A DNA stretch of 58,420 nt. It comes from Candidatus Omnitrophota bacterium (GTDB lineage: Bacteria > Omnitrophota > Gorgyraeia > Tantalellales > Tantalellaceae). Position 1 is the first letter of the stretch. Each line of letters opens with the position of its first letter. Positions 15,673 through 36,133 of the stretch are shown in pieces. Made by a program: the position numbers and the translations under genes. Below the pieces are notes generated by a model. That model did not search any database. It saw nothing but the letters and a program-made list of their open reading frames with translations, and had not been told where the DNA came from. Location: NCBI GenBank assembly GCA_043813915.1, contig JBDRKO010000024.1:1-58420 (forward strand), written 5' to 3'.

Positions 15673-15683
15673 CGAACAGAAAT

Positions 15684-15769
15684 AAAAATATATTCTGGGG
15701 ACATTCTTCGGCCAGGGCTTATACCCCCACGGGAAGAGTGTCCTCAGAACTTCCACCCTCAACTTTCAG
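15684..15769. repeat. Copy A of an ~85-nt element with conserved ends and a variable centre
   Basis: AAAAATATATTCTGGGGACAT...GTGTCCTCAGAACTTCCACCCTCAACTTT. Compare 29908-29990. The inner GGACAT/GTGTCC segments can pair. Confidence 0.8.
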
Positions 15770-15784
15770 ACTGCTTCTTTCCAT

Positions 15785-15855
15785 CACACATCACACATAA
15801 AACATTACACGACATTCCGCGTCTTTTTTCTGGTAACTGGTAACCGGTAACTTTG
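15785..15855. repeat. Word arrays (CACATCA CACATAA AACATTA CACGACA; TTCTGGT AACTGGT AACCGGT AACTTTG)
   Basis: CACATAAAACATTACACG recurs at 26291-26309. The CTGGTAA words are the complement of the TAACCAG family. Confidence 0.8.
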
Positions 15856-15947
15856 CTCAACAGACCTTCAAACTATTAATCGCATAGTGCCGGCCGCAGG
15901 CTCTTTGCCCTATGCGCTTTGCGTATCTTTAATGACTTCTTATTGCC

Positions 15948-17201: not shown

Positions 17202-17223
17202 TAACTATGACCCTTTTTTTCGG

Positions 17224-17481
17224 CTATGTTCTCTTTCCTTTTATCATAGACATGACTTTTCTTTCAGCGGTATACCAATCGCTTTGATCGTCGCCGTGTC
17301 CTCCGCCTCTCTGCAGATAAAGGTTATATGCCTCTTTTGCCGTAAGCGTGAACAAGTCCCCCGTTATGTTTTTTTTACCCTTACTTGCCTGCGCCCAGAT
17401 CGAGGTTCCCTTTTTTGCCGTTGCGGCCGTTTTTTTCTTAACCGCATTATCTTTGATGCTCTTTATCATTTTCTTGACCAT
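17224..17481 (-). CDS. DUF2934-like small basic protein
   Basis: The C-terminal half, AKEAYNLYLQRGGGHGDDQSDWYTAERKV, fits the DUF2934 pattern (A..AY..W...G.p.G.d..DW..AE). The N-terminal half is lysine-rich. Confidence 0.55.
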   Translation of the reverse strand: MVKKMIKSIKDNAVKKKTAATAKKGTSIWAQASKGKKNITGDLFTLTAKEAYNLYLQRGGGHGDDQSDWYTAERKVMSMIKGKRT

Positions 17482-17562
17482 GGCTCTCCCTTCCTTTTTT
17501 TTTAATGTTTCCTGAACATATATCCTTCCCGGATCGATCCTCGGCCCGGGAATAACTTGCGT

Positions 17563-19146
17563 TTATCCTTCGTACATACTGTAATTGATATTACCGAAGA
17601 CGTTATACTTGCTCTCGGCGTCGCTCAGAAGTTTTTCGTCTATACTGCCGTTCCTGAGCTGCGCGTGCAGAGTAAGGAATCTGGCGATGTGGTCTTTCGT
17701 TCTTTCAACGGCATATTCTGAAAAGGTTCCCGTTCTCATAATGAACGCCCAGTCGCTGGACTGTGCCAGAAGCAGTTCCCGCGCCATTTGGTTCAGGGTC
17801 CGGGCGGCTATACCTTCCGCGTTCTTGTGATCATTGGCCGCCTTTATCATAAGCTCCGCCATTTTATGAAGATGTCTGTATATCCAGTCATTCGACCCAT
17901 CCAGCCACATCTCGCTGTAACCCTTATATCCCCAGCTTGAGGAAGAAGGCTCTATGACCGGGTAATCGTCGTACATATCCATATACTCGGAGGGCGTTAT
18001 CGGTTTTATATCATCCTGATCATGACACATCTTTTTGAACAAAAAAGACAGCCATTCAGGGCCTTCAAACCACCAGTGACCGAAAAGCTCGGCGTCATAG
18101 GGCGATGTTATAACGGGTTTACGGTCCATCACGCCCGACAGATGTTCGACCTGTTTTTGCCGGTTGAACATAAAATTTCCCGCGTGATCTGACGCCGTAT
18201 TCATGGCCCTTTCACGATGATATAGCTCTTTATTGTCACCCTTTCCCGTTATTCTATGATACTTTATTCCGGTATTGACACGGGTCCCGCATCCGTTGAT
18301 AAAAGGCTTCACATAATCGTAATCCAGGTCGAACCCTATGTCGCGGTAATACTCCCGATAATTATAATCCCCCGGATACCCTTCTTTCGAACTCCATACG
18401 GCCTTAGAGCTTTCTATATCTCTGCCGAAGACGGCCGTCCCTGACTTTGTAAGATACGGACTGTACACCCCGTATTTCGGTCGCGGGCTGCCGAACAATA
18501 CGCCATGCGCTTCCACAAAGAAATAACGTATACCGTACTCCGCTAAAATTTTATCATGTTCGGGATAGTATCCGCATTCCGGAAGCCATACCCCTTTGGG
18601 ACCTTTTCCGAAAACTTCTTTGTAGGTATCAACGGCCACCTTTACCTGAGCCCTTATAGCCGGCTTATACATGTCCATAAGGGGCAGATAGCCGTGCGTA
18701 GCGCAGCATGTGATGACCTCGACTTTTCCCAGGTCCTGGAATTTTTTAAAAGCGGAGGTAAGATCGTTGCCGTATTTTTCGGAAAAAACGCGTTTCGCAT
18801 TAGTGTACCTGTCCAGATACATGTTCGCGAGCCGGTTAAGGTCCGCGTCCGAAGCCGTTCTTTCGGTCTCAAGCGAAGCCAGTTTGATAAGCTTATCCAG
18901 ATGACTCAGGTATCTGGATACGAGGAGGTCGTCCCTCAGCATGGTTATAAGCGTCGGGCTCAAGGAGACCGTTATACGGAAATCCGTTCCTTCCGATAAA
19001 AGGGAGTCGAAGACATTAACGAGAGGGACATAAGTATCGGTTATCGCTTCGAAGAACCAGGTCTCCTCCAGAAAACTCTCATGTTCGGGATGGCGGATGA
19101 ACGGCAAGTGCGCGTGCAGAACTAAAGCTAGATAACCTTTTGCCAT
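17563..19146 (-). CDS. GH57-family 1,4-alpha-glucan branching enzyme
   Basis: YLALVLHAHLPFIRHPE..EETWFFEAITDTYVPL resembles Thermus/Thermococcus-type GH57 branching enzymes. A helical C-terminal domain is present. I place the start at ATG 19146 (MAKGYLAL), 1 nt after the upstream stop. Confidence 0.85.
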   Translation of the reverse strand: MAKGYLALVLHAHLPFIRHPEHESFLEETWFFEAITDTYVPLVNVFDSLLSEGTDFRITVSLSPTLITMLRDDLLVSRYLSHLDKLIKLASLETERTASDADLNRLANMYLDRYTNAKRVFSEKYGNDLTSAFKKFQDLGKVEVITCCATHGYLPLMDMYKPAIRAQVKVAVDTYKEVFGKGPKGVWLPECGYYPEHDKILAEYGIRYFFVEAHGVLFGSPRPKYGVYSPYLTKSGTAVFGRDIESSKAVWSSKEGYPGDYNYREYYRDIGFDLDYDYVKPFINGCGTRVNTGIKYHRITGKGDNKELYHRERAMNTASDHAGNFMFNRQKQVEHLSGVMDRKPVITSPYDAELFGHWWFEGPEWLSFLFKKMCHDQDDIKPITPSEYMDMYDDYPVIEPSSSSWGYKGYSEMWLDGSNDWIYRHLHKMAELMIKAANDHKNAEGIAARTLNQMARELLLAQSSDWAFIMRTGTFSEYAVERTKDHIARFLTLHAQLRNGSIDEKLLSDAESKYNVFGNINYSMYEG

Positions 19147-19147
19147 T

Positions 19148-19696
19148 TTATTCTCCAAAAACAAAGGATCCGGAAGAACCGGACATGCGTGATGAAATAC
19201 TGTCGCTGGAAGGAAAATCGATAGAACTTTGTCCTATACCTTCCCCATCGGACCCGCACGATAAGCCGCCGTATAGACCCTTAGGGCTCATCCATTCGGC
19301 ATCGGAAACTTCCGCCATACGGTTGGAAGGAGTTATCGTGACATTCGAACGGGCCAGCGTAAAAAATTCACCCGATCCGTATAGGAGCCCTATATCTATG
19401 ATCCATTTTCTTCCGGGATCTACTCCGTTTATATACCAGCTGTTCGCGTAATCGTTTATCTCAAGATCCATCACCGGGGTAGGGGCGGTCATATCGCCGT
19501 CTGTCTGGTATACCCTCAATATCCTTCTGTAATGTGTCTGTCCCTTCTTTCTTATGTCCTCTTCCGCCGCGTGCAGAACGCCCGGCTGGACTTCCCAATA
19601 CGAAAAAAGAGTGTGCGGATCTCTAGCCATGAGGATTATTTTATTGTCCCCATAACCGCCCGGTATCTCTCTCTTCATTTTGTGAATGTAATGCAT
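19148..19696 (-). CDS. DUF4912 domain protein
   Basis: IPGGYGDNKIILMARDPHTLFSYWEV matches the DUF4912 N-terminal signature. Located between two GH57 genes. Confidence 0.6.
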   Translation of the reverse strand: MHYIHKMKREIPGGYGDNKIILMARDPHTLFSYWEVQPGVLHAAEEDIRKKGQTHYRRILRVYQTDGDMTAPTPVMDLEINDYANSWYINGVDPGRKWIIDIGLLYGSGEFFTLARSNVTITPSNRMAEVSDAEWMSPKGLYGGLSCGSDGEGIGQSSIDFPSSDSISSRMSGSSGSFVFGE

Positions 19697-19794
19697 CTAT
19701 CCCCTCTGCTAAAATGTTCTTGAACACATTTACAAAGTACATCGCCGCGGGAAACTATCTATTTGTAAATTCTAACTCTTCTATCTAGCTATTG

Positions 19795-21930
19795 TCAAGC
19801 AGATATTATTTCTATATCTAAACAAAAACTAAATATCTTCCCGGGCGCCAGGTCCAGATGGACTCTCGGGATCACCGCTGTGCTCTGGTAATTAAGCTCA
19901 TATGCTTTCTCTGACTGTGAGACCGTTCTCACCGGAAAGGCCCATAATCCACATGTCCTGTTCGCCTCTATTTTTAAGGATACCTCTTTCTTATGGTCCA
20001 TAATGAGAAAACTATCCATTTCGGAAGCGGTCATATCGTCTTTTAGACCTGCGCCGCTGCTTTTGCCGTTTATCGTTATCTCGTATCTTTCGCTGTCCGC
20101 GTCCGGCATAGTAATATTTATCTCCGGGGCGAACACGGCTCGAATATGGTCCTCTCCGTTATTCTTAACATTGTAGGCCGCTTTGAACCCTTCGCCTTTT
20201 TTCGTCAAAGTAACGGTCTTCTCGACTCTCGCGCTTATGCCGTTTATGTTCCCGTCCCGGATCATCTTGACCAAGATATCATCTTCTTTCTTCTCTACCG
20301 CGGAAACATATTCACCCAGAACAAAATCCCCGAGCTCTTTATGCTCGCATTTTTTGAACGTTTCTTTTTCGGTGCGTTCTTCCATAAAATGGTCGACCAG
20401 GCTTACCCTGTCATAGTTGTCATAACTAAGATGGCTTTCTATCCCTGCCTCGGCTTGCTGTATCCCGTCGTGTATCGTCCTGGCTTTGGCCCCGTTATCG
20501 TTAGCCGAGCGGCCCGCGTTCTCCTTGATCTTTTTATGGTATACCTCTTTCCTCCTGGATAGAGAATTTATCAAATTACACGGGACAGTTTTAAGGTCTA
20601 ACTCTTTCAGGCTTCCGCCTCTGTCAGGGTCTAAGTATAATGATATTTTCCTGTTTTCCAAGACTATCTCATCATGACCGTCGGAATCCACGTCACGGAC
20701 ATCACATGTCAGCATATCACCTTTACCATACACTATACTGTCCATAATGGCTTCACTTCGCACCAGATGCTCGTATATGGCCCTTCTGAGATGGAACAGA
20801 TAAAGCCCTCCGAACACCCCGTGCCAATAGGCGCAGTTACACTGCCCGCGGAAAAGTTCTTTTTCGGCCTCACCGAAAGCGGCGGTCTTCCCGTGCTTAG
20901 AACCTCTCATTTCTTCCAGTTTATTGCTCACATATATCATTTTTTTGTTCATATTATTGGATTCGGGATATTTTGTGAAAAAATTCCTCCAAAACCCGCC
21001 TCTTATGAACGGCTTATACCATTCTTCTTTCCCCGAGTTCCTTATATCATTCATTACTCCTTCGAATCTCTCTCCGATCTCAGCCGGAAGCGCCCATTCC
21101 AGCATTTCTTCGTAAGATACCGTAGGTATGTAAATGCGCCCCCCGGGTTTTCTTTTCTCATAGCATTCCGAAAGGGTTACGGTATCAAGCCAATCGGAAT
21201 TTTTTTTCAGTTCGCTGAAAAACTTTTCCAACCATTTCTCCTCGTATACCCACTTATGCGTTCCCGGCCATTCTCCGAATTTTTCCCCGTCATCACCGTA
21301 AACGAACAAAGGATCATGCACCCTGGACCTTATATCCCTCATATAATCCATGCATTCACGGGGCATTTTATAGGGGATATGATATCTCAATGTTTTGTCG
21401 GACGGAAAGACCGCTACTGTATTGGAACAATCTTCGGTAATATAGTGGCAATAAGTATCCTCTTTTTTTAGTCCCGCGTATAAGAAATGTGTGTCATCCA
21501 GTACGGTATATTTGATACCGGCCTTACTGAGCACCGACGGCAGCGCGGGTTCCCATACCCTCTCCGCCACCCAAGCCCCCTTGGGCTGTGATAAAAATAC
21601 TTTCTTTATATAATCGTTAAGCATCCTTATCTGGCCAAGACGGTCCCTCTCGGGGATAGACGGCAGAATGGGTTCATAGAACCCTCCGCTTATCATCTCC
21701 ACCTGACCTCGGGCCGTCAGACCTTTCACTATATCTATTATTTCAGGACGGTTCTTCTCTGCCCATTCCAGAAGACAACCTGTAAAATGGAACGTCATTT
21801 TTATCCCGGGGTAACGTGTTAATGTGTTCAAGAAAGGGATATAACACATGTCACTGGCCCGTCCGATAACATCGTCAAAATTACCGACCGGCTGATGAAA
21901 ATGGATGACCATCGCGAAATCTGTTTTCAT
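19795..21930 (-). CDS. GH57-family alpha-amylase / 4-alpha-glucanotransferase with C-terminal beta-sandwich domains
   Basis: FAMVIHFHQPVGNFDDV..YIPFL is like the Thermococcus 4-alpha-glucanotransferase N-terminus. 711 aa with a long C-terminal extension. Confidence 0.8.
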   Translation of the reverse strand: MKTDFAMVIHFHQPVGNFDDVIGRASDMCYIPFLNTLTRYPGIKMTFHFTGCLLEWAEKNRPEIIDIVKGLTARGQVEMISGGFYEPILPSIPERDRLGQIRMLNDYIKKVFLSQPKGAWVAERVWEPALPSVLSKAGIKYTVLDDTHFLYAGLKKEDTYCHYITEDCSNTVAVFPSDKTLRYHIPYKMPRECMDYMRDIRSRVHDPLFVYGDDGEKFGEWPGTHKWVYEEKWLEKFFSELKKNSDWLDTVTLSECYEKRKPGGRIYIPTVSYEEMLEWALPAEIGERFEGVMNDIRNSGKEEWYKPFIRGGFWRNFFTKYPESNNMNKKMIYVSNKLEEMRGSKHGKTAAFGEAEKELFRGQCNCAYWHGVFGGLYLFHLRRAIYEHLVRSEAIMDSIVYGKGDMLTCDVRDVDSDGHDEIVLENRKISLYLDPDRGGSLKELDLKTVPCNLINSLSRRKEVYHKKIKENAGRSANDNGAKARTIHDGIQQAEAGIESHLSYDNYDRVSLVDHFMEERTEKETFKKCEHKELGDFVLGEYVSAVEKKEDDILVKMIRDGNINGISARVEKTVTLTKKGEGFKAAYNVKNNGEDHIRAVFAPEINITMPDADSERYEITINGKSSGAGLKDDMTASEMDSFLIMDHKKEVSLKIEANRTCGLWAFPVRTVSQSEKAYELNYQSTAVIPRVHLDLAPGKIFSFCLDIEIISA

Positions 21931-21931
21931 C

Positions 21932-24900
21932 TTATCTTTCCCTTCCTATCATGTCCCTATATAACTGCATGTATTTTTCGGCGGAGACAGTCCATGAAAA
22001 GTCATATCCCATGGCTCTCTTCATGAGCTTGGTCCATTCTTCTTTATCCCGGTAAACTCTTAAGGCCCGTTCGACCGCACTATAAAGAGACCGTTTGTCG
22101 GCTGAAGCGAACTTGAACCCGTTGCTTTCTTTTCCGGACTCATCAAAATCCACTATAGCGTCATCCAAACCTCCCGTTGCTCTGACTATGGGTATAGTGC
22201 CGTATTTCAGGCTGTACATCTGGTTCAATCCGCACGGCTCATACCTGGACGGCATAACGAACATGTCGCATCCGGCTTCGATCTTATGGGCCAGTTCATC
22301 ATTGAAATCGTTGCACACATATATTTTCCCGGGATATCTCGCCGCAAGTTCCGAGAACATTCTGTTATACCCCTCATTTCCTTTACCCAAGATCACAAGT
22401 CCCGCTCCCCTTTCCGTGAGGCTTCCGGCTATCTCCGCCAGAAGATCCATTCCTTTTTGGTCCGCAAGTCTCGTCACGGCGCCTATTAGCGGAGCTTCCT
22501 CCGGGATATCAAGCCCCGTATGCTCGATAAGGTCTTTCTTGCATATCATTTTGTTCTTAAGGTTTTCGGCATCATAGTTCTTTTTTATATTCTTGTCGCT
22601 TTTGGGGTTCCATACGGAATAATCCGCCCCGTTAGGTATCCCATACAGAAAATCTTTTCTTTTACGTACAAGTCCGTCAAGTCCCGCTCCGAATCCCGGC
22701 GTCATTATCTCTCTGGCGTAACGCCGGCTAACGGTACTGACCGCGTCCGAATACAATATCCCCGCTTTCATGAAATTTATACTACCGTAGAATTCCAGGT
22801 CATCCATATTGAAAAATCTCTCGGGAATGTTTATTCTGGACATTATCCCGCGCCCAAAAATACCCTGATACGCCATATTATGTACGGTGAACAACGTTCT
22901 GATACCGTTGAAATGTTTATCGCTGCTGAGCTCGAAACGCAGATAAAAGGGTATAAGCGCGGTCTGCCAATCGTTGCAATGTATGATATCCGGTTTCTGG
23001 TCCATTTCATTTACCACCGCCAGGACGGCTTTTGAGAAACACGCGAACCTCAGCCCGTTATCCGGATAATCCCCTTTTTCCGTCCCGTATAGACCGTCTC
23101 TGTCAAAAAAATGACGGTTATCTATAAAATAAGTGGTAACCCCTCCATGTCTCGCGGAATAAACATCGAATCCGTGTGTGCCGCCGAGAAAAGCGCTTTT
23201 CTTTACGCTTTTTTCCTTTATCAGCTCAAGATCTTTCATCTCCCGCACGCATTTATATAGCGGCATGATGACGCTTATATCCGCTCCTGCCGACAATAAT
23301 GCCTTGGGAAGGCTTCCTGATACATCTGCCAAGCCCCCGGTCTTAGCGAACGGGACGGATTCCGATGAAACGAACAATATTTTTTCCTGACGCGCCATTT
23401 CCCCTTTTGCCGGACCTTCGGGAAGACCTTGTATACCAAGAACAGGCGGTATAGGCTCGGCCAGGCCGTACGGCGCGGGACGTCCGATTATGTTATATAT
23501 ATTGAGCAGATGTTTCCGGAAAAGTTCATCAAAAATAAAATTAAGCTCCGTGCCGAAATCATCGTACCACCAGAACCAATCACTCCCTTCGGCGATATAA
23601 AGCTCTTCTAACGCTTCTTTTTTTTGTTCATCCAGACTGAAGAGTTCTCTGCGCGCTTTTCTCAGATACTCCCATGCCTTGTCTTTTTGAGGCGACCCTA
23701 TCCACTTCTTGAAGTTACGGTTTATCCACGATCCGCTGAACAATTTAGGGATGCTTTTTCTTTCCTTATTAACGGCACGGTATTCGCTGACCGTTACGGT
23801 GGCCAGTTGAGGATTTGAAGAAAGATCCTTATATACGGTCTTAAGGAACGCTTCTCCGCCGCAGGGATAATACGGCCAGGGATTTTCCCCGTCCAGTATT
23901 ATTGAAGCTAAATGCTCCCCCCCTTTTAACGCGCAGAAAGAAGCTATACCTTTAAGGTCCTTTATAAGGTCCGCGGCGGCTTTTTTCGACGGCATGTGCG
24001 AATATCTGAAACTTATCGCGTTGGATATGTTTATATCGCGGAAGATAAGATCTATCTCTCTACCGTCCTCTTTCGCGGTAAAGACCTTGTATATGAGTTC
24101 ATCCCGGGACCCGTCATACCCCTTAAAGGACTCCATAAGTATGCCTTCGTCGGTGGCTATCCACTCGATCCCCCGGTCCGCAAGGAACGGTATTATATTC
24201 TGGCTGACACTTCCTTCGGGCGGCCACATCCCTTTGGGAGAACGCCCGAAGACCTTTTTATAAAGATCTAGGGCCTTTTCTACCTGAACTTTCGCGTCTT
24301 GGGTAAAATCGAACCCCTCGTCATCCTTACCTCTGCATAATAACGGCAATATCGGGTGATAGAACGGTGATGTCGTTATCTCTATCCGTCCTTCGTCCTG
24401 CAGTTTTTTATACGCGGGCAGAACAAGCGCCACCGCCTCTTTCTGTCTTTTAAAAAGCGCAGTTTTATCTTCTTCAGTATAACCCGAACCTTTTTTTATA
24501 AGTTCTTTTATTACGGGATCTTTTTTCTTAAGCGTAAAGCCGCACCACGCTAGATTAAAGAGCACCTGGAGATCCCTGAACTCGGCAACGGTAAATTTCC
24601 GGCTTTTAATAAGCAGATCCTGCTCTTTAAGGCTTCCTTCCCTTTTAGAAAAAAGTTCAGCGTATTTTTTGAAGGAAGATATAGCGTTATTAGGATCACA
24701 GGAAAAAAAGTTCTTGAGCAGAAAACATTTATCATTATCCGTAAGTTCAGAGGCTTGTTTCGAAGAAAGCTCAAGATAGGTATCGTCTATAGTTCCTTCG
24801 GATGACACATCAAGAAGCTGCCATATGAGGGAGGGGGTAAGATTGAACGTGCATTTTATATCCGGGAAATCGTACAATATCGCCGCCATATCCATGTACG

Positions 24901-25012
24901 AATAGGTAGCGTGCAGCCTCACCCAGGGAAGAGCATATTTTCCCGTGACAAGGTCTTTATACATCGGTTGATGCATATGCCAAAAAAATGCTATGGGGAA
25001 TTTGTCTCTCAT
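21932..25012 (-). CDS. glgA: Fusion protein: N-terminal GH57 glycoside hydrolase domain plus C-terminal GT5 glycogen synthase
   Basis: Residues 1-~520 are GH57-like: FFWHMHQPMY..LPWVRLHA. From ~540 on the sequence is KILFVSSESVPFAKTGGLADVSGSLPKAL, HCNDWQTAL, ..PSRYEPCGLNQMY.., the GlgA hallmark motifs. Confidence 0.85.
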   Translation of the reverse strand: MRDKFPIAFFWHMHQPMYKDLVTGKYALPWVRLHATYSYMDMAAILYDFPDIKCTFNLTPSLIWQLLDVSSEGTIDDTYLELSSKQASELTDNDKCFLLKNFFSCDPNNAISSFKKYAELFSKREGSLKEQDLLIKSRKFTVAEFRDLQVLFNLAWCGFTLKKKDPVIKELIKKGSGYTEEDKTALFKRQKEAVALVLPAYKKLQDEGRIEITTSPFYHPILPLLCRGKDDEGFDFTQDAKVQVEKALDLYKKVFGRSPKGMWPPEGSVSQNIIPFLADRGIEWIATDEGILMESFKGYDGSRDELIYKVFTAKEDGREIDLIFRDINISNAISFRYSHMPSKKAAADLIKDLKGIASFCALKGGEHLASIILDGENPWPYYPCGGEAFLKTVYKDLSSNPQLATVTVSEYRAVNKERKSIPKLFSGSWINRNFKKWIGSPQKDKAWEYLRKARRELFSLDEQKKEALEELYIAEGSDWFWWYDDFGTELNFIFDELFRKHLLNIYNIIGRPAPYGLAEPIPPVLGIQGLPEGPAKGEMARQEKILFVSSESVPFAKTGGLADVSGSLPKALLSAGADISVIMPLYKCVREMKDLELIKEKSVKKSAFLGGTHGFDVYSARHGGVTTYFIDNRHFFDRDGLYGTEKGDYPDNGLRFACFSKAVLAVVNEMDQKPDIIHCNDWQTALIPFYLRFELSSDKHFNGIRTLFTVHNMAYQGIFGRGIMSRINIPERFFNMDDLEFYGSINFMKAGILYSDAVSTVSRRYAREIMTPGFGAGLDGLVRKRKDFLYGIPNGADYSVWNPKSDKNIKKNYDAENLKNKMICKKDLIEHTGLDIPEEAPLIGAVTRLADQKGMDLLAEIAGSLTERGAGLVILGKGNEGYNRMFSELAARYPGKIYVCNDFNDELAHKIEAGCDMFVMPSRYEPCGLNQMYSLKYGTIPIVRATGGLDDAIVDFDESGKESNGFKFASADKRSLYSAVERALRVYRDKEEWTKLMKRAMGYDFSWTVSAEKYMQLYRDMIGRER

Positions 25013-25082
25013 GACTTACACATGATACTTATATAGCGGATATATCGTCAAGCTAAATCGTACATTCAGTTGAACGGTTTAA

Positions 25083-25189
25083 GAGTTCTGAGTTCGATGT
25101 TCGTAGTTCGGTGTTGATAGTCGTAAATATCTATTTGCTAGGCCCTCACTACGAACTATGAACTATGAACTACTAACTACGAACTATCT
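25083..25189. repeat. Inverted pair of six-unit heptamer arrays with a 23-nt spacer (no ORF inside)
   Basis: 25083-25124 GAGTTCT GAGTTCG ATGTTCG TAGTTCG GTGTTGA TAGTCGT. 25148-25189 ACTACGA ACTATGA ACTATGA ACTACTA ACTACGA ACTATCT. Confidence 0.9.
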
Positions 25190-26090
25190 TTCCATTCACT
25201 AATGCCTTCACCCATCCTATAGCCATTTCGAGCAGAGACCTATGGCTCTTCTCATATGCGATCAAACCTTGATCATTGAGCGCACATATATCTTTCCATA
25301 GATCCTCCGACTGAAGAACGGCAAAAACTATCTTGGGTTCGAGTGAAGGGTCGACACCGGCGAACGTACGTTTTGCTTCCTTGGTATATCCGGTCTTTCC
25401 CCAAGGACCGTCCTCCCGTTTCAAGAGCGCCTTATTGTGGGTCTTCAGGAGTATACTCTTTTTATCGCTTCCTATTATTTCGTCCTGTTTCAACGACATG
25501 GTCTCCAAAAGGTCCTTACGGCCCGCCGCATACCGCATAAGCGTACACAGGTCTTTCGCCGTTATGTACTGCGTGTCTTTTTTTTCCGCGGGAAGTCCCG
25601 ACGCGTTGGCAAAATACGTATCGTTCATCCCGAGTTCTTTGGCTTTATCGTTCATCATTCTGGCAAAAAGTTCTTCACTGCCGGCGATATGATGCGCGAT
25701 GACCCTTGCCGCGTCATTACCTGACTTTATCATTAACGCGGAGATCAGGTCTTTTGCTTTATAACTGACTCCGCCGGCCAGACCCGCGACAGTAGGTTCT
25801 ACTTTTACGGCCTCCGGAGTAGACACAATATATTCATTAGGATCGATCTTCTCGAGGACTATCAGCGCTGTCATTATCTTAGCGGTCGAAGCCGGCGGGA
25901 ATTTGTCGTCGGGGTTTTTTTCATACAGCACTTTTCCATTCTTCATCTCGCGTATGACCGCGCATCTGCCGCTGATATCAAGCGTCAGAGGTTCTTCGGA
26001 ACATCCTGCCAGCATGCCTGCGACAACAAACAGAGAAACTACTATCCCATATATATTTTTGTGAACTATTTTCATGTTTTCCTTTACCAT
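25173..26090 (-). CDS. D-alanyl-D-alanine carboxypeptidase (S11 / PBP5-like)
   Basis: SxxK (ASTAKIM), SGN (IKSGND) and KTG (GKTGYT) boxes, plus a signal/lipoprotein leader. The last codons (IVRS*) read into a heptamer array. Confidence 0.85.
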   Translation of the reverse strand: MVKENMKIVHKNIYGIVVSLFVVAGMLAGCSEEPLTLDISGRCAVIREMKNGKVLYEKNPDDKFPPASTAKIMTALIVLEKIDPNEYIVSTPEAVKVEPTVAGLAGGVSYKAKDLISALMIKSGNDAARVIAHHIAGSEELFARMMNDKAKELGMNDTYFANASGLPAEKKDTQYITAKDLCTLMRYAAGRKDLLETMSLKQDEIIGSDKKSILLKTHNKALLKREDGPWGKTGYTKEAKRTFAGVDPSLEPKIVFAVLQSEDLWKDICALNDQGLIAYEKSHRSLLEMAIGWVKALVNGKIVRS

Positions 26091-26438
26091 TTAATACTTA
26101 CCACTTAACACTTAATACTTGTCTTGGTTCTTCCTTCTGTCCTCTGACTTCTGTCTTCTGACTTCTGACTTCCGTCCTCTGTCTTCTAGCTCTGGGGCCA
26201 CCTTTAAACACAAAAAAAGTGCCACATTCAAAGCTAAATTAGCAAACGGTACAAAAGTATGCGGAAGTGTTCTTCCTCCATTCCACGTAACACATAAAAC
26301 ATTACACGCCGCCGGTTATCTCCCGTCCTTCGTCCTTCATCCCTCGTCTCTCATTCATCTGCGTCAAAACGGGGACGTTTTGCCCACCTCGAACATTACG
26401 TTCTCGGCGCCTGTGCTCTGTGCCCTATGCTCTATGCC
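26091..26438. repeat. Mosaic of word arrays (TTAATAC/TTACCAC; CTTCTGA/CCTCTGA x8; CACATAAAACATTACACG; TCCTTCG/TCCCTCG; TGTGCTC TGTGCCC TATGCTC TATGCC)
   Basis: Arrays at 26091-26120, 26131-26187, 26291-26309, 26326-26359 and 26412-26438, plus the hairpin CAAAACGgggaCGTTTTG at 26365-26382. Confidence 0.85.
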
Positions 26439-26451
26439 ATTAACGAACTAT

Positions 26452-27246
26452 TTAAACTTTTACCTCTATCCCCACAGGACAGTGGTCGGATCCCATGACA
26501 TCTTTTAAAATAAACGCTTTTTTCACCAAGGGAATAGTGTTTTCTGTAACAAAAAAATAATCTATCCTCCACCCTACGTTTCTTTCACGCGACCTTGTTT
26601 TGTAATCCCACCATGTATATTGACCCGGTTCTTTGTTGAAATGCCTGAACGTATCGATGAACCCGTGTGACACCATTTTGTCTATCCATTTACGTTCCTC
26701 CGGCAAGAACCCTGATACATTTTCGTTCTGCTTGGGACGCGCTAGATCTATCTCCTTATGCGCGGTATTAACATCACCGCATACAATTAACTTTTTATCC
26801 TTAAATCCATCAATAAAATCAAGAAATTTGTCATAAAATTTTAGTTTATATCCCAGCCTTTCCGGACGGGATCCGCCGTTCGGGAAATAAACGTTAATAA
26901 GAACGTACTTCTCGAAATAAAGTATGAGCACTCTGCCTTCCGTATCTAATCGTCCTGAAGGAAAATCGGTTTTTACCGAATGCGGTTCGATCTTAGTGAA
27001 TACCGAAACGCCGGCATATCCTCTGCGGTCAGGATTGTTCCAATAAGCAAAATATCCTTCAGGAGGATCTATGTCGCGGTCCAGCTGCTCGGGCCGGGCC
27101 TTTGTCTCCTGCAGACAGAGCACATCCGGAGACTCTTTTCTAAGCCACTCAAGAAAACCTTTTTTCTTTATAGCGCGTATCCCGTTAACGTTCCATGATA
27201 TTATTTTCACGATATGCCTATTATAGTTTTGACCCATTCCCCACAC
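26452..27246 (-). CDS. xth: exodeoxyribonuclease III
   Basis: KIISWNVNGIRA, LCLQETK, FPNGG, DHCPV motifs. The true start may be GTG 27210 (VKIISWN), because the 27246 ATG abuts a hairpin repeat. Confidence 0.9.
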   Translation of the reverse strand: MWGMGQNYNRHIVKIISWNVNGIRAIKKKGFLEWLRKESPDVLCLQETKARPEQLDRDIDPPEGYFAYWNNPDRRGYAGVSVFTKIEPHSVKTDFPSGRLDTEGRVLILYFEKYVLINVYFPNGGSRPERLGYKLKFYDKFLDFIDGFKDKKLIVCGDVNTAHKEIDLARPKQNENVSGFLPEERKWIDKMVSHGFIDTFRHFNKEPGQYTWWDYKTRSRERNVGWRIDYFFVTENTIPLVKKAFILKDVMGSDHCPVGIEVKV

Positions 27247-27258
27247 GGAAGTGTGGGG
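27237..27258. repeat. Copy of the TTCCCCACAC-N4-GTGTGGGG hairpin family
   Basis: TTCCCCACACggaaGTGTGGGG, between the eda stop and the xth start. Confidence 0.85.
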
Positions 27259-27262
27259 TCCT

Positions 27263-27913
27263 CTACACGCTCCCGCGTGTAGTATCCTTCACCGACCGCA
27301 CTTTCTCTACATATTGTCGTACCAGCTTTTCAATGGACCCGAAGTCCTCCCTATTAAGCCACTCTTCTTTAAAAACGCTTCCTCCAAAAGCCACGGCATC
27401 AGCTCCTGAGGAAAAATATTCCTCGATATTCTCAAGTTTTATGCCTCCCACAGCCATAAGAGGGATATTGTTCAAGGGCCCTTTGAGCTGTTTGATGTAG
27501 GCCGGTCCGAAAGTCTCGGCCGGAAAGACCTTTACCATAGATGCTCCAGCCTCGTAGGCTGTCAGGACCTCTTGAGGGGTAAGGGCGCCCGGGAATACCG
27601 GGATATTCTTTTTGCAACACTCGGCCACGACATTTTTTATCAGAACGGGTGAAACAATAAATTCGGCACCGGCATTCAGCGCTTTTTTCAGATCGTCCAC
27701 GGAAAGTACCGTTCCGGCACCGATACTGATATTGCCTTTAACTATACTTCTGGCTTTGGAAATAAGTCCGGACGCTCCCGGCGTATTCATGGTTATCTCA
27801 ACGGTCTCAAGCCCGGCTTCGCAGACACAGGAAAAAAGACCTTCCAAAGATCTTTCTTGAACACCTCTCAATATGCCCATAATAGGCAGTTTTCTGAACT
27901 TTTCTATATCCAT
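27263..27913 (-). CDS. eda: KDPG / KHG aldolase (2-dehydro-3-deoxyphosphogluconate aldolase)
   Basis: PIMGILRG, VEITMNTP, IGAGTVL, FIVSP, PGALTPQE, VKVFPA, MAVGGI: the Eda-family pattern. Confidence 0.85.
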   Translation of the reverse strand: MDIEKFRKLPIMGILRGVQERSLEGLFSCVCEAGLETVEITMNTPGASGLISKARSIVKGNISIGAGTVLSVDDLKKALNAGAEFIVSPVLIKNVVAECCKKNIPVFPGALTPQEVLTAYEAGASMVKVFPAETFGPAYIKQLKGPLNNIPLMAVGGIKLENIEEYFSSGADAVAFGGSVFKEEWLNREDFGSIEKLVRQYVEKVRSVKDTTRGSV

Positions 27914-28180
27914 GGAGTCCTAATTTGACCTGTCTGTCCGCTGCTAGAAAAAACGGGAACACAACGCCTCTGTTCCAAGACGATCCCGAAAGAGCCGTCT
28001 TTAAGCGAAATTGTGCCCCCGTTATTTTTACGTCAATTCACCGATACCCCGGTCTAAAGACCGGGGCTCGCTTGCCCTGAGCGAAGCCGAAGGGTTCCTA
28101 ATTGATCCTGAGCCACAGTTATTTCTCCCGCGCTAAAGCACGGGATTTCGGCGGGGCGAATGGGTAAAAGATCTAAGGGC

Positions 28181-28573
28181 TTATTTAGAGCTGCTGTAAG
28201 CCTCTTTTAACCCGTCTTTATACCCGTCCGTATAACCTTTTTTATACCCGTTACTGTATCCGTCCTCATAACCGTCAGAATAGGCAGTCCTAGGCGCAGA
28301 AGAATCTACTTCCTCTACTTTTTTGACCTTCTCCCCGCTTATGGAATCAAGCAGAGCGCCGCCTATTATATTCACTCCAGCGCCGGCAAGAGCTCCTTTC
28401 CAGACATCTCCCCCTTTAGCCCCCGAAGCCGCTCCGCCTACAGCGCCTGCGCCCGCTCCAAGCAGACCTTCCCTAAGAAGATTCGAGGAATTATCTCCAC
28501 CGAAACTTTCCGCTATGGGAACTATGGCCATTACCAGAACAAATAGCACGCATACAATATTTCTTACTCTCAT
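28181..28573 (-). CDS. glycine-zipper membrane/lipoprotein-like small protein
   Basis: Signal/TM segment, then the Gly-zipper GLLGAGAGAVGGAASGAKGG..GALAGAGVNIIGGAL. The tail is a GY-rich repeat, DGYEDGYSNGYKKGYTDGYKDG. Confidence 0.6.
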   Translation of the reverse strand: MRVRNIVCVLFVLVMAIVPIAESFGGDNSSNLLREGLLGAGAGAVGGAASGAKGGDVWKGALAGAGVNIIGGALLDSISGEKVKKVEEVDSSAPRTAYSDGYEDGYSNGYKKGYTDGYKDGLKEAYSSSK

Positions 28574-28710
28574 GTTAACCTCCCGCTGATATTTTTAAAT
28601 TCCAGGCCATTATGATATCACAATACTAGGTTCCAGTAAAAGAAGAAAATTATCCATGCTTTCGTCCGGCCCTGCAGAAGAAGGTCTATGCCGCTTCCTA
28701 ACGGACGGAT

Positions 28711-29613
28711 CTAGGATAACATGCTTCCCTGCCGAACACCTCTCTTTTCCATTTCCCTTTCTATGTATCTGACGGCTTCCAGCTTATCTTCCATCCATCT
28801 CGGCGCGACGATCAGATCTCGCTTGGCATCGGATATCAATCTCATTATAACGCAATCGCTTCTCAGATGCTCGATAAAATCACATACATAACCCGCATAC
28901 TCATCCAGACTAAGCATCCTTACGGATCCGCTTTCGTACATCTTTTCCATCGGGGTATTTTTCAGTACATGAAGCATATGCAGTTTGACCCCGTCTACGG
29001 GAAGGCCGGAGATGCGTTCCGCGATCTTAATGATATCTTCCCGCGACTGCCCCATCCCTCCTATCATAATATGAACTCCGACTTTTATCCCCCTTTTTGC
29101 CGTTCTTTCAATAGCCTCTATGGTCTGACCGGACGTATGCCCCCTGTTCATTCTTCTCAGAATATCATCACTTAACGACTGCATCCCGTATTCGACCCAA
29201 ACGTCATAATCATCCATATATCCGGCTATAAGATCCAATTTTTCATCATCAACACAATCCGGCCGTGTAGAGATGGACAGGCCTATGATCTCGGGGAATC
29301 CCCGTATGACGTCATATGCTCTTTTAAGTTCCGAAGGTTCCGCATTGGTACTTGTCCCGTTCTGAAAATACGCTATAAATTTCCGCACATCTCTTCTCTT
29401 CTTCATCTCTTTTATGGATCCTGATATCTGAGCGTCCAAGGACAATGCTTGTCCGGCATAGTTACTGTATCCTTCCTCGTTGCAGAATATACATCCGCCC
29501 AAACCGTCCTCATCGATCCTGTTCGGGCATCCGAACCCCGCGTTAAGACCGATCTTCTTGACGTTCTCGCCGTAGGTTTCCTGCACGTATTGTTTGAAGG
29601 AATAGTATCGCAT
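28711..29613 (-). CDS. TIGR01212-family radical SAM protein (YhcC-like)
   Basis: GFGCPNRIDEDGLGGCIFCNEEG is the unusual Cys motif typical of TIGR01212. Followed by ISTRPDC and WVEYGMQS. Confidence 0.85.
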   Translation of the reverse strand: MRYYSFKQYVQETYGENVKKIGLNAGFGCPNRIDEDGLGGCIFCNEEGYSNYAGQALSLDAQISGSIKEMKKRRDVRKFIAYFQNGTSTNAEPSELKRAYDVIRGFPEIIGLSISTRPDCVDDEKLDLIAGYMDDYDVWVEYGMQSLSDDILRRMNRGHTSGQTIEAIERTAKRGIKVGVHIMIGGMGQSREDIIKIAERISGLPVDGVKLHMLHVLKNTPMEKMYESGSVRMLSLDEYAGYVCDFIEHLRSDCVIMRLISDAKRDLIVAPRWMEDKLEAVRYIEREMEKRGVRQGSMLS

Positions 29614-29618
29614 ATTTT

Positions 29619-30075
29619 CGTGACTCGTGACTCGTGAACAAGTAGCTTCTTTAAAGTAACCAGTTGCCTGTTTTCTGTAACCAGTAAACTACATCTTTCT
29701 TCTGGTAACTGGTAACCGGTTTCTGGTAACTTTATTTAACTGGGCCTTCGACCTTTTAATATTTTAAACTGCTAATAGCATAGAGCACAGGGCACAGAGC
29801 ATAGAGTTATACTGACTGATGCTTAAACGTAATTCGTAATTTGTGAGTCGTGATTTGTGCCGTACGAATAGCAACCAGTTGCCTGTTGCCTGTTCCCTGT
29901 AACCAGTAAAAATATATTCTGGGGACATCTTGAGGGGTAGGTTTACACTTCCCCGGGAAAGGTGTCCACAGAACTTCCACCCTTAACTTTTTAACCCCTC
30001 TTCCTTCGTCCCTCTGACACTTTGGCTCTTCTTTTATCCTCTACCCTCTGACGTCTGTCTTCTGACTTCTGACCC
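29619..30075. repeat. Large mosaic of at least eight different heptamer word arrays plus the 85-nt element
   Basis: CGTGACT x3 at 29619-29639. TAACCAG/CTGGTAA inverted pair at 29652-29736. CATAGAG CACAGGG CACAGAG CATAGAG at 29779-29806. GTAATTC GTAATTT GTGAGTC GTGATTT at 29829-29856. GCAACCA GTTGCCT GTTGCCT GTTCCCT GTAACCA at 29871-29905. CCTCTGA CGTCTGT CTTCTGA CTTCTGA at 30048-30075. Confidence 0.9.
29908..29990. repeat. Copy B of the ~85-nt element
   Basis: AAAAATATATTCTGGGGACAT...GTGTCCACAGAACTTCCACCCTTAACTTT. The ends are nearly identical to 15684-15769 and the centre differs. Confidence 0.8.
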
Positions 30076-30112
30076 AGCCCTTTTAGTTCTTACTATGATC
30101 AAAAGGGCTGGG
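30073..30112. repeat. 12-bp perfect hairpin (CCCAGCCCTTTT / AAAAGGGCTGGG), 16-nt loop
   Basis: Read directly. ~55 nt downstream of the mnmG stop. No U-tract on the minus strand. Confidence 0.8.
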
Positions 30113-30125
30113 TAAATTCGCGCTT

Positions 30126-30158
30126 ATAACTTATGCTTCCTACGGTCGCATAAGTTAT
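30126..30158 (-). terminator. Hairpin immediately after the mnmG stop (possible terminator, weak U-tract)
   Basis: ATAACTTATGC-11 nt-GCATAAGTTAT. 11-bp perfect stem beginning 9 nt past the stop at 30167. Confidence 0.4.
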
Positions 30159-30166
30159 GTGCTCAT

Positions 30167-31948
30167 TTACTTCTTCCTCAACTTGACCATAAGTATGGAT
30201 ATTGCTACAGGGGTCACTCCTGATATCCTTGAAGCCTGCCCTAATGAAATGGGTCTTATCGAAGAAAGTTTTTCCTTTATTTCGGTCGACAGACCTTCCG
30301 TCCCGAAATAATCAAAATCTTTCGATATCCTTATTTTTTCCAGGTTCTCGAATTTTTGGACCTTTGATATTTCTCTTTCTATGTATCCGGCGTATTTCAC
30401 GTCAACTTCCAGCTGTACCTTCTCATAATAAGAAAGACCCTCTATATCCCTGTTCTCGGCGGCAAGGTCCTCGTAGGACACTTCCGGTCTTTTCAGTTTA
30501 CCGAGAAGCTTCGCCGCTTTCATACACTCTTTTATTCTGTTCACGTTGGCGTATTTTTCCTCAACTCTGGCTTTCTCTTTTTTTCCGGCAAGCCCGATCC
30601 GAACGGCCATGTCCGTGAGCCTGATATCCGCGTTATCTTCCCTGATAATTATCCTGTATTCTACGCGCGAAGTGAACATGCGGTAAGGCTCTTTAGTCCC
30701 CTTTGTCACAAGATCATCTATCAGCACGCCTATATACCCCTGTGCCCTGTCGATAACCAACGCTTCTTCTCCTCTGCATTTAAGCGACGCGTTTATCCCC
30801 GCCATTAACCCCAACGCCGCAGCCTCTTCGTAACCTGTGGTCCCGTTGATCTGACCCGACACGAAAAGCCCTTTTATGATCTTTGTTTCCAGAGACGGCA
30901 TAAGCTGTGTGGGATCGATGTAATCGTATTCTATACCGTATCCGGGTTTATTTATTTTCGCTTTTTCCATACCTTTGATACTGTGTATCATACGCTCTTG
31001 GACATCCAAAGGCAGGCTCGTCGATATCCCGTTAGGATAATATTCATCCGTATTGAGCCCTTCGGGTTCCAGGAAGATAACATGGGAATCCCTGTGAGGG
31101 AACCTGGTTATTTTATCCTCTATGGACGGGCAATACCTTACACCAGTAGACTTTATCTTTCCGGTATACAGCGGCGACCTGTCCATGCCTTCTCTAATGA
31201 TCTCATGGGTCCTTTTATTGGTCCTGGTCAGATAGCAGGGTTTTTGTTCAAGCGGTATATTTTTGTTAGAAAAAGAGAAGGGTATGATCCTGCTGTCACT
31301 ACCCTGTTCTTCCATTACGGAGAAATCTATCGTTTTTCCGTCTATCCTTGCCGGTGTTCCCGTCTTCAACCGTCCCACGCGCAGTCCCAGCTCGGAAAGA
31401 TTACCGGATAATCCGTGCGAAGCATTCTCATCTATACGCCCTCCGTCATGATGTTCCATACCCACATGTATGACTCCGTTCATAAAAGTGCCTGTTGAAA
31501 GAACAGTGCATACCGACAGGATCTCCTCTTCGGATGTCCGCACTCCGCGGCATATACCCGATCCGGTCAATATCTCCTTTACCTCACCATCAAGCACATC
31601 CAGATCCTTTTGCCCGTCTATGCACCGGACCATGTAGCTATTATACTTGGCCCTGTCTATCTGCATTCTGGATGAACGGGCGGCATACCCCTTTGAGGCG
31701 TTAAGCATACGATACTGTATGCATGAAGCGTCCGCGGCTTTCCCCATCTCTCCGCCAAGCGCGTCCACTTCTTTGACAAGCTGTCCTTTGCCGGTCCCGC
31801 CTATAGAAGGATTACAGGAAGTGTACCCTATTTTCTTCCTGTCCATCGTTACCAGAAGCGTCTTCAGGCCCATACGGCCGGCCGCAAGAGCCGCTTCGCA
31901 TCCGGCATGACCGCCGCCGACAACGATAATATCGTATTTAGTTTTCAT
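30167..31948 (-). CDS. mnmG: tRNA uridine 5-carboxymethylaminomethyl modification enzyme MnmG (GidA)
   Basis: MKTKYDIIVVGGGHAGCEAA FAD motif. Also GPRYCPSIE-like VRYCPSIEDK, and a C-terminal ISLGQASRISGVTPVAISIL. Start placed at ATG 31948; the 25-codon extension in the ORF track has no support. Confidence 0.95.
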   Translation of the reverse strand: MKTKYDIIVVGGGHAGCEAALAAGRMGLKTLLVTMDRKKIGYTSCNPSIGGTGKGQLVKEVDALGGEMGKAADASCIQYRMLNASKGYAARSSRMQIDRAKYNSYMVRCIDGQKDLDVLDGEVKEILTGSGICRGVRTSEEEILSVCTVLSTGTFMNGVIHVGMEHHDGGRIDENASHGLSGNLSELGLRVGRLKTGTPARIDGKTIDFSVMEEQGSDSRIIPFSFSNKNIPLEQKPCYLTRTNKRTHEIIREGMDRSPLYTGKIKSTGVRYCPSIEDKITRFPHRDSHVIFLEPEGLNTDEYYPNGISTSLPLDVQERMIHSIKGMEKAKINKPGYGIEYDYIDPTQLMPSLETKIIKGLFVSGQINGTTGYEEAAALGLMAGINASLKCRGEEALVIDRAQGYIGVLIDDLVTKGTKEPYRMFTSRVEYRIIIREDNADIRLTDMAVRIGLAGKKEKARVEEKYANVNRIKECMKAAKLLGKLKRPEVSYEDLAAENRDIEGLSYYEKVQLEVDVKYAGYIEREISKVQKFENLEKIRISKDFDYFGTEGLSTEIKEKLSSIRPISLGQASRISGVTPVAISILMVKLRKK

Positions 31949-32607: not shown

Positions 32608-32627
32608 TTTCTCTCCTCTATAAAATA

Positions 32628-32657
32628 AGTAGGGGCACGGCATGCCGTGCCCCTACT
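32628..32657. repeat. Perfect 30-bp palindrome AGTAGGGGCACGGCATGCCGTGCCCCTACT (best copy of the family)
   Basis: Self-complementary over all 30 nt. Lies between the metH stop (32670) and the start of the small Cys-rich ORF (32607). Confidence 0.95.
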
Positions 32658-32669
32658 TATTCTTTAACC

Positions 32670-36118: not shown

Positions 36119-36133
36119 TGAAAAGTCTAAATA

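Follow-up and report, generated by a model that had tools for sequence, protein, structure and literature searches.

Which kind of element is formed by two arrays of tandem heptanucleotides that stand face to face, in inverted orientation, between the genes of a Candidatus Omnitrophota bacterium? The question is raised by positions 25083-25189 of contig JBDRKO010000024.1 (hereafter, the window is the whole 58,420-nt stretch analysed), where two mutually complementary arrays of 7-nt words enclose a short loop, and by three further loci of the same architecture. The original prediction took these hairpins, which hold no open reading frame (ORF), for something that no annotated feature class explains. 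Reading of the sequence, Tandem Repeats Finder (TRF) and an inverted-repeat search agree on the four pairs and on their positions. On balance, we favour the view that they belong, without a gene of their own, to a family of hairpin elements resembling the intervening sequences (IVSs) of 23S rRNA, which would define mRNA ends between genes.

Anatomy of the heptamer arrays and their hairpins

TRF reports ∼30 period-7 arrays in the window, and those of the four loci have 0% indels (the arrays without indels include 25148-25186, 55641-55673, 55712-55743, 36208-36236 and 14269-14298). A lag-match scan (21-nt window, at least 17 matches, periods 4 to 15) finds 18 segments at period 7, seven at period 14 (2 × 7), two at period 12 and none at the remaining periods, while 50 second-order Markov simulations gave no segment at period 7. 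The strict 7-nt period announced earlier is thus confirmed, and period 7 is uniquely enriched, as in heptanucleotide repeats of the short tandemly repeated repetitive (STRR) type. All of the ∼29 arrays are located in the non-coding 12% of the window or touch gene ends only (88% is coding, and the minus strand carries nearly all genes); the sole seeming coding exception, at 15642-15672, lies upstream of the true start of an FMN-reductase gene. The words group into a few dispersed families (D1, D2, D5, D9, D11 and D18). Grouping arrays by exact canonical consensus word split the families too finely, and direct blastn-short was used instead. Module D1 (GTTACCA, CTGGTAACAGGCAACTGGTTAC) has five dispersed copies with an identical order of variant words and a partly common flank, and the TAGTTCG arrays also share variants such as TAGTGGG (family D9). 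No motif common to all words is visible. Period, confinement to non-coding DNA and dispersed families all support the resemblance to STRRs that had been proposed.

The arrays adjoin or even supply gene ends, as also claimed at the outset. Indeed, three arrays of the TAGTTCG family start inside a stop codon or at most 1 nt from it: the last codons of the PBP5-like gene are part of the array, the TGA of PGI overlaps the first word and the array of the Lon-like gene begins 1 nt away. Since 7 is not a multiple of 3, TAG-containing arrays provide a stop codon in all frames. Many arrays adjoin start codons on their upstream side.

The loops of loci 1 to 4 measure 23, 35, 38 and 19 nt, respectively, in agreement with the 19-38 nt first given. 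For stability, each locus was folded as RNA of the gene strand and compared with 200 dinucleotide shuffles, which resulted in z-scores of -2.39 (25078-25194), -6.57 (55636-55750), -6.77 (36129-36242) and -4.45 (14258-14361); at each of the four loci, none of the 200 shuffles was as stable as the native sequence. The expectation that the arms give stems better than shuffled controls is therefore borne out, and all four loci have, like an IVS, inverted terminal repeats forming a long predicted stem. Locus 1 has the weakest stem, owing to a degenerate 3' arm. The inverted-repeat search recovers every pair, often in multiple registers offset by 7 nt, as expected since both arms are periodic. The paired and unpaired arrays, with the promoter-like sites next to them, are as follows.

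25148-25189, minus strand: 5' arm of locus 1, TAGTTCG family, encoding the last codons (IVRS*) of the PBP5-like gene at 25173-26090
25083-25124, minus strand: 3' arm of locus 1, degenerate CGAACTA family; the loop is 25125-25147
25051-25022, minus strand: promoter-like site TTGACG-18-TATCAT, past the 3' arm of locus 1
55711-55745, minus strand: 5' arm of locus 2, TAGTTCG family, overlapping the PGI stop codon TGA at 55743-55745
55641-55675, minus strand: 3' arm of locus 2, CGAACTA family; the loop is 55676-55710
36207-36237, minus strand: 5' arm of locus 3, GACTATT/GGACAAT family
36134-36168, minus strand: 3' arm of locus 3, AATGGTC/AATAGTC family; the loop is 36169-36206
14315-14356, minus strand: 5' arm of locus 4, GTAACCA/GAAACCG family
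14263-14298, minus strand: 3' arm of locus 4, one of the five D1 module copies
14210-14182, minus strand: promoter-like site TTGACT-17-TATTAT, past the 3' arm of locus 4
29655-29735, minus strand: fifth, weak pair of the GTTACCA family (arms 29702-29735 and 29655-29689; z -1.74)
51889-51929, minus strand: unpaired TAGTTCG-family array, 1 nt past the stop codon TAA of the Lon-like gene, in a 128-nt spacer
51802-51818, minus strand: unpaired CACCATT array at the opposite end of this spacer, not complementary to 51889-51929
26084-26438, minus strand: spacer with four unpaired arrays (AAGTGTT, GAAGTCA/GAAGACA, GACGAAG and GCATAGA families), from TRF and the lag scan
10549-10583, 11781-11853, 15642-15852, 29618-30074 and 58141-58266: further unpaired arrays

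Both sigma-70-like sites (loci 1 and 4) are placed after the hairpin and ahead of the following start codon. The hairpin of locus 2 occupies the whole spacer from the stop codon of PGI up to a point 5 nt short of the Mem_trans start codon (55636), which leaves no room for a promoter; the initial description of the gaps as inter-operon does not hold in general. As for a possible assembly artefact, a Logan contig (L044) is 99.98% identical to the window over 6425 nt, locus 3 included, and a JGI contig (L131) is identical through locus 2, so that these two loci are reproduced base for base in independent assemblies.

The inverted pairing, first presented as systematic, occurs well above chance but is far from the rule. 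Among the 15 pairs of neighbouring arrays (at most 120 nt apart), 5 are complementary versus 0.94 expected by permutation of the arrays (P ∼0.001), and some two thirds of the ∼29 arrays are unpaired (5 doublets and ∼19 singlets). Extragenic inverted doublets with a spacer, accompanied by decaying singlets, are also a feature of repeats of the REP/REPIN type (repetitive extragenic palindromic sequences and their hairpin-forming doublets). The unpaired half arrays noticed at 51793-51929 are genuine arrays of differing families and are not complementary (z -0.87).

With the 3' arm of locus 2, the 5' arm of locus 1 reaches -46.4 kcal/mol, a better pairing than the -26.7 kcal/mol obtained with the 3' arm of its own locus, and arms of the GTTACCA family likewise pair better across loci than within a locus. 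Because arms from different loci pair as well as those of the same locus, complementarity appears as a property of the family, with individual arms decaying. A locus-specific co-evolution of the arms, which we had considered, was rejected since cross-locus duplexes match the stability of same-locus ones.

Two dispersed copies of an 84-nt element (15683-15766 and 29907-29990, 80% identity) are both flanked by heptamer arrays. They display conserved ends, TAAAAATATATTCTGGGGACAT...GTCC.CAGAACTTCCACCC, around a variable hairpin-forming centre, and have no Rfam match.

Related arms and a gene-bearing hairpin

The closest named PGI relatives of the window belong to Candidatus Omnitrophota, the top one being Ca. 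Aadella gelida (69% identity). The block PGI-Mem_trans-61aa-Lon-Na/H exchanger-Dus-Maf is syntenic in this organism and in other Omnitrophota, and the comparison of syntenic gaps suggested with the original prediction reveals turnover of words in one spacer and presence/absence in another. Between PGI and Mem_trans, the flanks are conserved (stop codon ... AATTATGG) and the interior is replaced among relatives. In Aadella, this spacer holds an inverted heptamer hairpin with TAGGTTC/GAACCTA words (z -7.4), where the window has TAGTTCG/CGAACTA; the phase of the TAG after the stop codon is unchanged and both arms are altered together. Elsewhere in the phylum, the post-PGI site is occupied by a different heptamer hairpin, GTGATGC/GCATCAC (L057 and L067), by direct arrays (ACAAGCG, CCGACGA) in some lineages, or by plain hairpins in further ones, with a T run after the hairpin in L056 and L086. 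The spacer between Lon and the Na/H exchanger measures 128 nt in the window versus 1-36 nt in four relatives, which indicates an insertion composed of arrays.

In another Omnitrophota lineage (L066, L068-L079, L091-L097), a conserved element of ∼90 nt is found ∼10-110 nt past the PGI stop codon. It consists of a hairpin, AAAACCTACGG...CCGTAGGTTTTG, followed by TAAGGGGATAGGCCTTAGA.TTGCTTTCGCTATCC, has no Rfam match at E ≤0.01, and may be an undescribed structured RNA or terminator module.

Arms are also shared between genera at non-orthologous sites. Positions 36131-36165 (locus 3) are 94-97% identical to both arms of a hairpin located after LptG in Aadella, with which they have a terminal CGGACTAT motif in common, and positions 51887-51928 are 92-95% identical to an Aadella array after AdoHcyase; these values contrast with the 69% identity of PGI between the two organisms. 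The claim that each locus has its own words has to be abandoned: the words belong to a few families with dispersed copies, conserved at 92-97% in another genus and encountered as well on cyanobacterial plasmids and IMG/VR contigs. In 762 kb of more distant Omnitrophota loci, we counted 12 period-7 arrays, against 18 strict ones in the 58 kb of the window; the high density is therefore specific to the lineage of the window. Our literature search found no report joining Omnitrophota with tandem intergenic repeats.

A search of all window ORFs with Nostoc proteins disclosed a four-helix-bundle gene (E 3e-27) that scores 131 bits against PF05635 (23S_rRNA_IVP) and 124 bits against TIGR02436; Pfam and NCBIfam scans of the small ORFs adjoining the hairpins gave no four-helix-bundle match. 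The link between the arrays and such an ORF, proposed previously, is confirmed here by a gene enclosed in inverted heptamer arrays, arranged as follows.

43959-44381, minus strand: ORF of the four-helix-bundle gene (PF05635/TIGR02436), inserted between MoxR (44405-45418) and DUF58 (43078-43962); as the loop part of the element, the gene is taken at 43959-44351
44362-44404, minus strand: 5' arm of the gene-bearing element, CGTGACT, ∼4 copies
43964-43984, minus strand: 3' arm, AGTCCCG AGTCACG GGGCACG, in the coding end of the gene and complementary to the 5' arm

In both minimum free energy and centroid folds, a long-range stem between the CGTGACT array and the coding-end array closes the ORF (43959-44404). 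A homologue with 88% identity occupies the same position between MoxR and DUF58 in ENA contigs (L149-L151), and relatives of the window protein at 71-88% identity keep arms of the CGTGACT/CGTCGCT type in differing operons.

The association extends to other phyla. We surveyed 30 genes of the PF05635 family, namely that of the window and 29 sampled from plasmids and metagenome contigs of Cyanobacteriota, Bacteroidota, Pseudomonadota, Gemmatimonadota and PVC (Planctomycetes-Verrucomicrobia-Chlamydiae) hosts, including Riemerella, Azospirillum and Gemmatirosa. At least one flank carries a strict period-7 array in 20 of the 30, compared with a background of 0.6-3.2% of 113-nt windows, and the 5' and 3' arms are mutually complementary in ∼20 of the 30; a few genes have units of 8 or 9 nt rather than 7. 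They interrupt unrelated operons (nrdB|nrdA, cas6|cas4, cas10|cmr3, V-ATPase C|F), and all protein pairs that are at least 72% identical carry the same repeat word, across cyanobacterial orders. This modest survey suggests that the link is general over five phyla: the gene sits in the loop, the stem consists of inverted short tandem arrays and the word follows protein phylogeny. Two plasmids are exceptions to the hairpin rule, with direct arrays around the gene: AAAGCTA ×14 upstream and AAAGCCA ×10 downstream in Pseudanabaena galeata (L138), and an 8-nt unit in Gemmatirosa (L145).

The relationship between gene-bearing and gene-less hairpins is most explicit in Nostoc punctiforme. The first 50 kb of plasmid pNPUN01 hold nine strict period-7 arrays, of which eight form four inverted pairs, and one pair (CAGGAGT/GACTCCT) surrounds a gene annotated 'four helix bundle protein'. 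On the same plasmid, a gene-less hairpin (958-1093) and a gene-bearing one (1551-2006) have an identical arm, down to the order of variant words. In Nostoc 7120, a CTTCTGC array follows the four-helix-bundle gene of pCC7120alpha by 14 nt. The architecture is thus common on a Nostoc plasmid and its gene-bearing form corresponds to the 23S rRNA IVS (PMC4990558), contrary to the statement that no annotated feature class accounts for it. Besides this Coxiella paper (PMC4990558), our literature search found none tying PF05635 genes to heptamer arrays.

Explanations for the hairpins

How might such elements arise and act? In the explanation that we favour, the stem of an element is made of two inverted arrays of ∼5 STRR-type heptamers each, and its loop is variable. 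The full-size form, one copy of which lies in the window at 43959-44404, holds in its loop a four-helix-bundle gene (PF05635/TIGR02436, a homologue of Avd). Elements stand between co-directional genes, and their typical start is at the stop codon of the preceding gene or within it. Because arms belonging to one family recur in different genera and at unrelated positions, the elements were probably copied or moved as units rather than formed locally by slippage. Once the spacer is transcribed, the arms should pair as an imperfect RNA stem of 30-40 bp, most likely a substrate of RNase III by analogy with ribosomal IVSs; an uncut stem might act as a barrier to 3' exonucleases or as a terminator. 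Through cleavage or as a barrier, the stem would therefore set mRNA ends between neighbouring genes.

Several observations weigh against this explanation. Pairing is not the whole story, since two arrays out of three have no partner. Within a locus, the arms show no co-adaptation, as cross-locus combinations pair equally well or better, and locus 1 and the pair at 29.7 kb are decayed, with arms that decay independently. Inspection of the sequence around the four hairpins gave no flanking target-site duplications, the stems are not followed by a U tract, and the window encodes no candidate mobilising enzyme. Finally, ∼800 kb of Omnitrophota loci yielded no four-helix-bundle gene flanked by TAGTTCG, GACCATT or GTTACCA arms, and the IMG/VR loci examined, 12 with TAGTTCG arrays among them, yielded no four-helix-bundle gene at all. 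As no PF05635 copy with the arm families of the four loci was found in these sequences, the link between master and derivative is directly visible in Nostoc only.

Alternatively, the hairpins could be ordinary 3'-end structures, acting as terminators devoid of U tract or as mRNA stabilisers, that arose from slippage-prone heptamers and are unrelated to four-helix-bundle elements. This is unlikely in our opinion but deserves to be taken seriously: it fits the position past stop codons and ahead of promoter-like sites, relatives exhibit plain hairpins or canonical terminators at the PGI site, and most other spacers of the window hold non-heptamer hairpins right after the stop codon, according to the inverted-repeat search. 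It is also compatible with the functional half of the IVS-like explanation. What it leaves unexplained is the 92-97% conservation of arms at non-orthologous sites across genera, the variant order kept among dispersed copies and the same architecture around PF05635 genes across phyla. Moreover, a terminator consensus scan gave nothing at loci 1 to 3 and, at locus 4, picked out no more than a sub-stem within the 3' arm, with TTATTT as its tail; the GC-rich stem followed by a U tract of an intrinsic terminator is absent from all four loci, and the hairpins of locus 2 and of its Aadella orthologue extend through the spacer as far as the start codon.

The functional unit could instead be the single-stranded array, serving as a row of protein-binding sites at ∼7 nt per subunit, with inverted pairs being incidental. 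Candidate binders would be the pentameric four-helix-bundle protein, a cold-shock protein or ribosomal protein S1. The abundance of unpaired arrays, many of them just upstream of start codons, is in line with this proposal, as are the typical array size of 4-6 units beside the pentameric state of S23p (PMC4990558), the covariation of word and protein, and the recurrence of the same words across phyla. In addition, each heptamer is bound by one molecule of CspB, and S1, Csp or CsrA have been suggested for TAACTGA repeats (PMC4679880). We nevertheless judge it improbable given that inverted pairing is enriched (P ∼0.001), that pairing is kept at the orthologous PGI site with concordant change in both arms, and that the arms around PF05635 genes are nearly always complementary.

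A further alternative would be elements similar to REPINs or to miniature inverted-repeat transposable elements (MITEs), moved by a transposase encoded elsewhere, with the arrays as terminal inverted repeats. Conserved inverted arms around unrelated loops, the presence of both doublets and singlets as for REPINs (PMC3116915), the insertion polymorphism and the terminal CGGACTAT motif common to locus 3 and the Aadella arms all suit this possibility. Yet it has very little chance of being correct: the four hairpins have none of the target-site duplications of MITEs, no RAYT or IS200/IS605 gene was found among the scanned ORFs of the window, which covers 58 kb of the genome, the lone transposase trace is a Mutator fragment (11120-11620), and the many word families would require many enzymes. 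Chance or an assembly artefact, for which nothing speaks but the weak stem of the representative locus (z -2.39), can practically be dismissed in view of the period-7 enrichment, the fold z-scores, the pairing statistics and the independent assemblies that are identical at loci 2 and 3.

We tentatively extend the IVS-like explanation to a broader and riskier proposal. Rather than inert slippage products, STRR arrays might be the cognate arms of a widespread, so far unrecognised class of selfish hairpins whose gene product is a pentameric, Avd-like four-helix-bundle protein. Every lineage of this protein would read its own heptamer word (∼1 heptamer per subunit, 5 per array), and gene-less hairpins and single arrays would be non-autonomous derivatives still acted on by the protein and RNase III. 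If true, one explanation would cover both the STRR puzzle, now 35 years old, and the orphan PF05635 family, together with the patchy distribution that they have in common (Cyanobacteria, Bacteroidota, giant sulfur bacteria, PVC and Omnitrophota). Both puzzles become testable through word binding, RNase III cutting and mobility, with Nostoc punctiforme as a tractable host. Besides, the hairpins are of value for the annotation of Omnitrophota and cyanobacterial genomes, as they mark where genes end, contribute terminal codons and cause assemblies to break.

The remaining spacers of the window contain other small repeats and a few features of note. The true REP-like palindromes are repeat families D3/D4 and D12. 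A REP-like palindrome, GTAGGGGCACGGCATGCCGTGCCCCTAC, is present in six copies just past stop codons, at the positions below.

5363-5397, 9595-9629, 14882-14906, 14955-14987, 32626-32660 and 47284-47308: copies of the REP-like palindrome GTAGGGGCACGGCATGCCGTGCCCCTAC

Similar palindromes come after PGI in other Omnitrophota (L048, L056), and the Logan contig L044 terminates at the copy near 32632. Another family of palindromes, CATTCCCCACACGG.AGTGTGGGGAA, is represented three times (3474-3502, 5989-6017, 27235-27263), and two of these copies adjoin long perfect hairpins (3403-3470 and 5921-5980). The 26-nt motif CATTGCGAGCGCAGCGAAGCAATCTC (11759-11784) recurs at 96-100% identity at L072:6913-6938 and L081:3476-3501, in distantly related Omnitrophota (PGI ∼51% identical), and the motif CGCTTGCCCTGAGCGAAGCCGAAGGG (28069-28094) is found again in L124; both look like widely dispersed small hairpin repeats. 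The unusually large non-coding stretch of 1.4 kb at 10518-11940, with several arrays, long hairpins and, on its plus strand at 11120-11620, a fragment of a Mutator-family transposase (Pfam E 2e-7), is probably a decayed insertion. A single ORF of 1026 aa on the minus strand (21932-25012) encodes a GH57 glycoside hydrolase fused to a GT5 starch/glycogen synthase (Pfam E 3e-62 and 1e-86). The exact-protein look-up gave no record for this protein or the PBP5-like one, and a contig search with the latter yielded relatives at no more than 38% identity, without synteny. Rfam returned zero matches at the gathering score over the whole window and zero at E ≤0.1 for 14000-30300, and neither tRNA or tmRNA nor rRNA genes were found in the window.

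Likeness to known systems

Intrinsic terminators share with the window hairpins a stem-loop just past the stop codon, and the stem-loops of loci 1 and 4 precede a promoter-like site. The window stems differ in being AT-rich, 30-40 bp long and periodically mismatched, without U tract, and one of them reaches the next start codon.

REPs, bacterial interspersed mosaic elements (BIMEs) and REPINs (PMC3116915) are similar in their extragenic, post-stop location, imperfect palindromes, inverted doublets and singlets; they also share their spacers, in mosaics, with small repeats of other kinds, and a stabilising effect on upstream mRNA is attributed to them. On the other hand, REPs are single palindromes of 20-40 nt with fixed sequence that are moved by RAYT, whereas the window arms are heptamer arrays of many families.

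TAACTGA repeats, known from Beggiatoaceae, Cyanobacteria and Bacteroidetes, with S1, Csp or CsrA as proposed binders (PMC4679880), are intergenic as well, count 2-6 units, often adjoin start or stop codons and contain stops in all frames; their patchy distribution across phyla suggests transfer. They differ by the use of one word that is nearly always direct (1 of 170 sets is inverted), and neither hairpins nor a PF05635 link were reported for them (PMC4679880). In an organism clearly different from that of the window, an IMG/VR contig with 66% GC (L176, UViG_3300033149_005996), the word family of loci 1 and 2 forms inverted [GT]AGTTCG / CGAACT[CT] pairs at 1665-1967, 2983-3090 and 4561-4697, two of the three with loops of 7-9 nt; matches to the degenerate pattern GACYATTGACYRTTGAC in IMG/VR are mostly due to chance.

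PF05635 has thousands of members, and we know of no role for the family. It is homologous to Avd, an accessory protein of diversity-generating retroelements (PMC10053308). In Coxiella, the 23S rRNA IVS forms a 28-bp stem around the S23p ORF and is excised by RNase III, which makes its 5' cut where a row of three tandem heptamers begins, at the first repeat; the heptamer copy number differs among strains, and S23p is a pentamer (PMC4990558). IVSs with an S23p ORF are known in Leptospira, Coxiella and Brucella and viewed as selfish or possibly mobile (PMC4990558). The window element at 43959-44404 has the same organisation, that is inverted terminal repeats and a long predicted stem around a PF05635 ORF. 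The elements of the window differ in their location, all of them standing between protein-coding genes instead of in helix 25 or 45 of 23S rRNA. In addition, the four loci have no PF05635/TIGR02436 ORF in their 19-38-nt loops and their stems are repeat arrays throughout; cleavage by RNase III would apply to them by analogy.

The closest parallel for the arrays themselves is found in STRRs. To our knowledge, STRR heptamers have been recognised in cyanobacteria since 1990, without accepted origin or function; Mazel in 1990 and Mrazek in 2007 are said to have described these heptanucleotide repeats and long simple-sequence repeats of 5-11 nt. Vioque in 1997 is reported to have found that STRRs make helix P12 of RNase P RNA, and Elhai in 2008 reportedly dealt with heptamer-repeat contexts in N. 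punctiforme, so that inverted STRR stems may already be precedented in print. Like STRRs, the window arrays are tandem heptamers of non-coding DNA that belong to a few dispersed families common to related genera. The likeness extends to the words: TA[AG]TTCG ×7 was retrieved on a Cyanobacterium aponinum plasmid by blastn against plasmids with locus 2, CTTCTG-type arrays occur in Nostoc 7120, and GAC(C/T)AAT in Nostoc resembles GACCATT in the window. Inverted pairs are also frequent on pNPUN01. The differences are the density (18 strict arrays in 58 kb versus 3 per 50 kb on one Nostoc plasmid and 9 on another), the orientation, since classical accounts describe direct repeats and the window has arms of hairpins, and the host, which is Candidatus Omnitrophota by its PGI relatives and not a (heterocystous) cyanobacterium. 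The heptamer repeats of Nostoc 7120 have been described as possible regulators (bioRxiv 10.1101/2022.06.06.494920).

To conclude, STRR repeats and IVS elements were each known before; what is new is their occurrence in Omnitrophota and the tie between heptamer repeats and the four-helix-bundle family. The window joins heptamer arrays and a PF05635 gene in a phylum where neither had been discussed.

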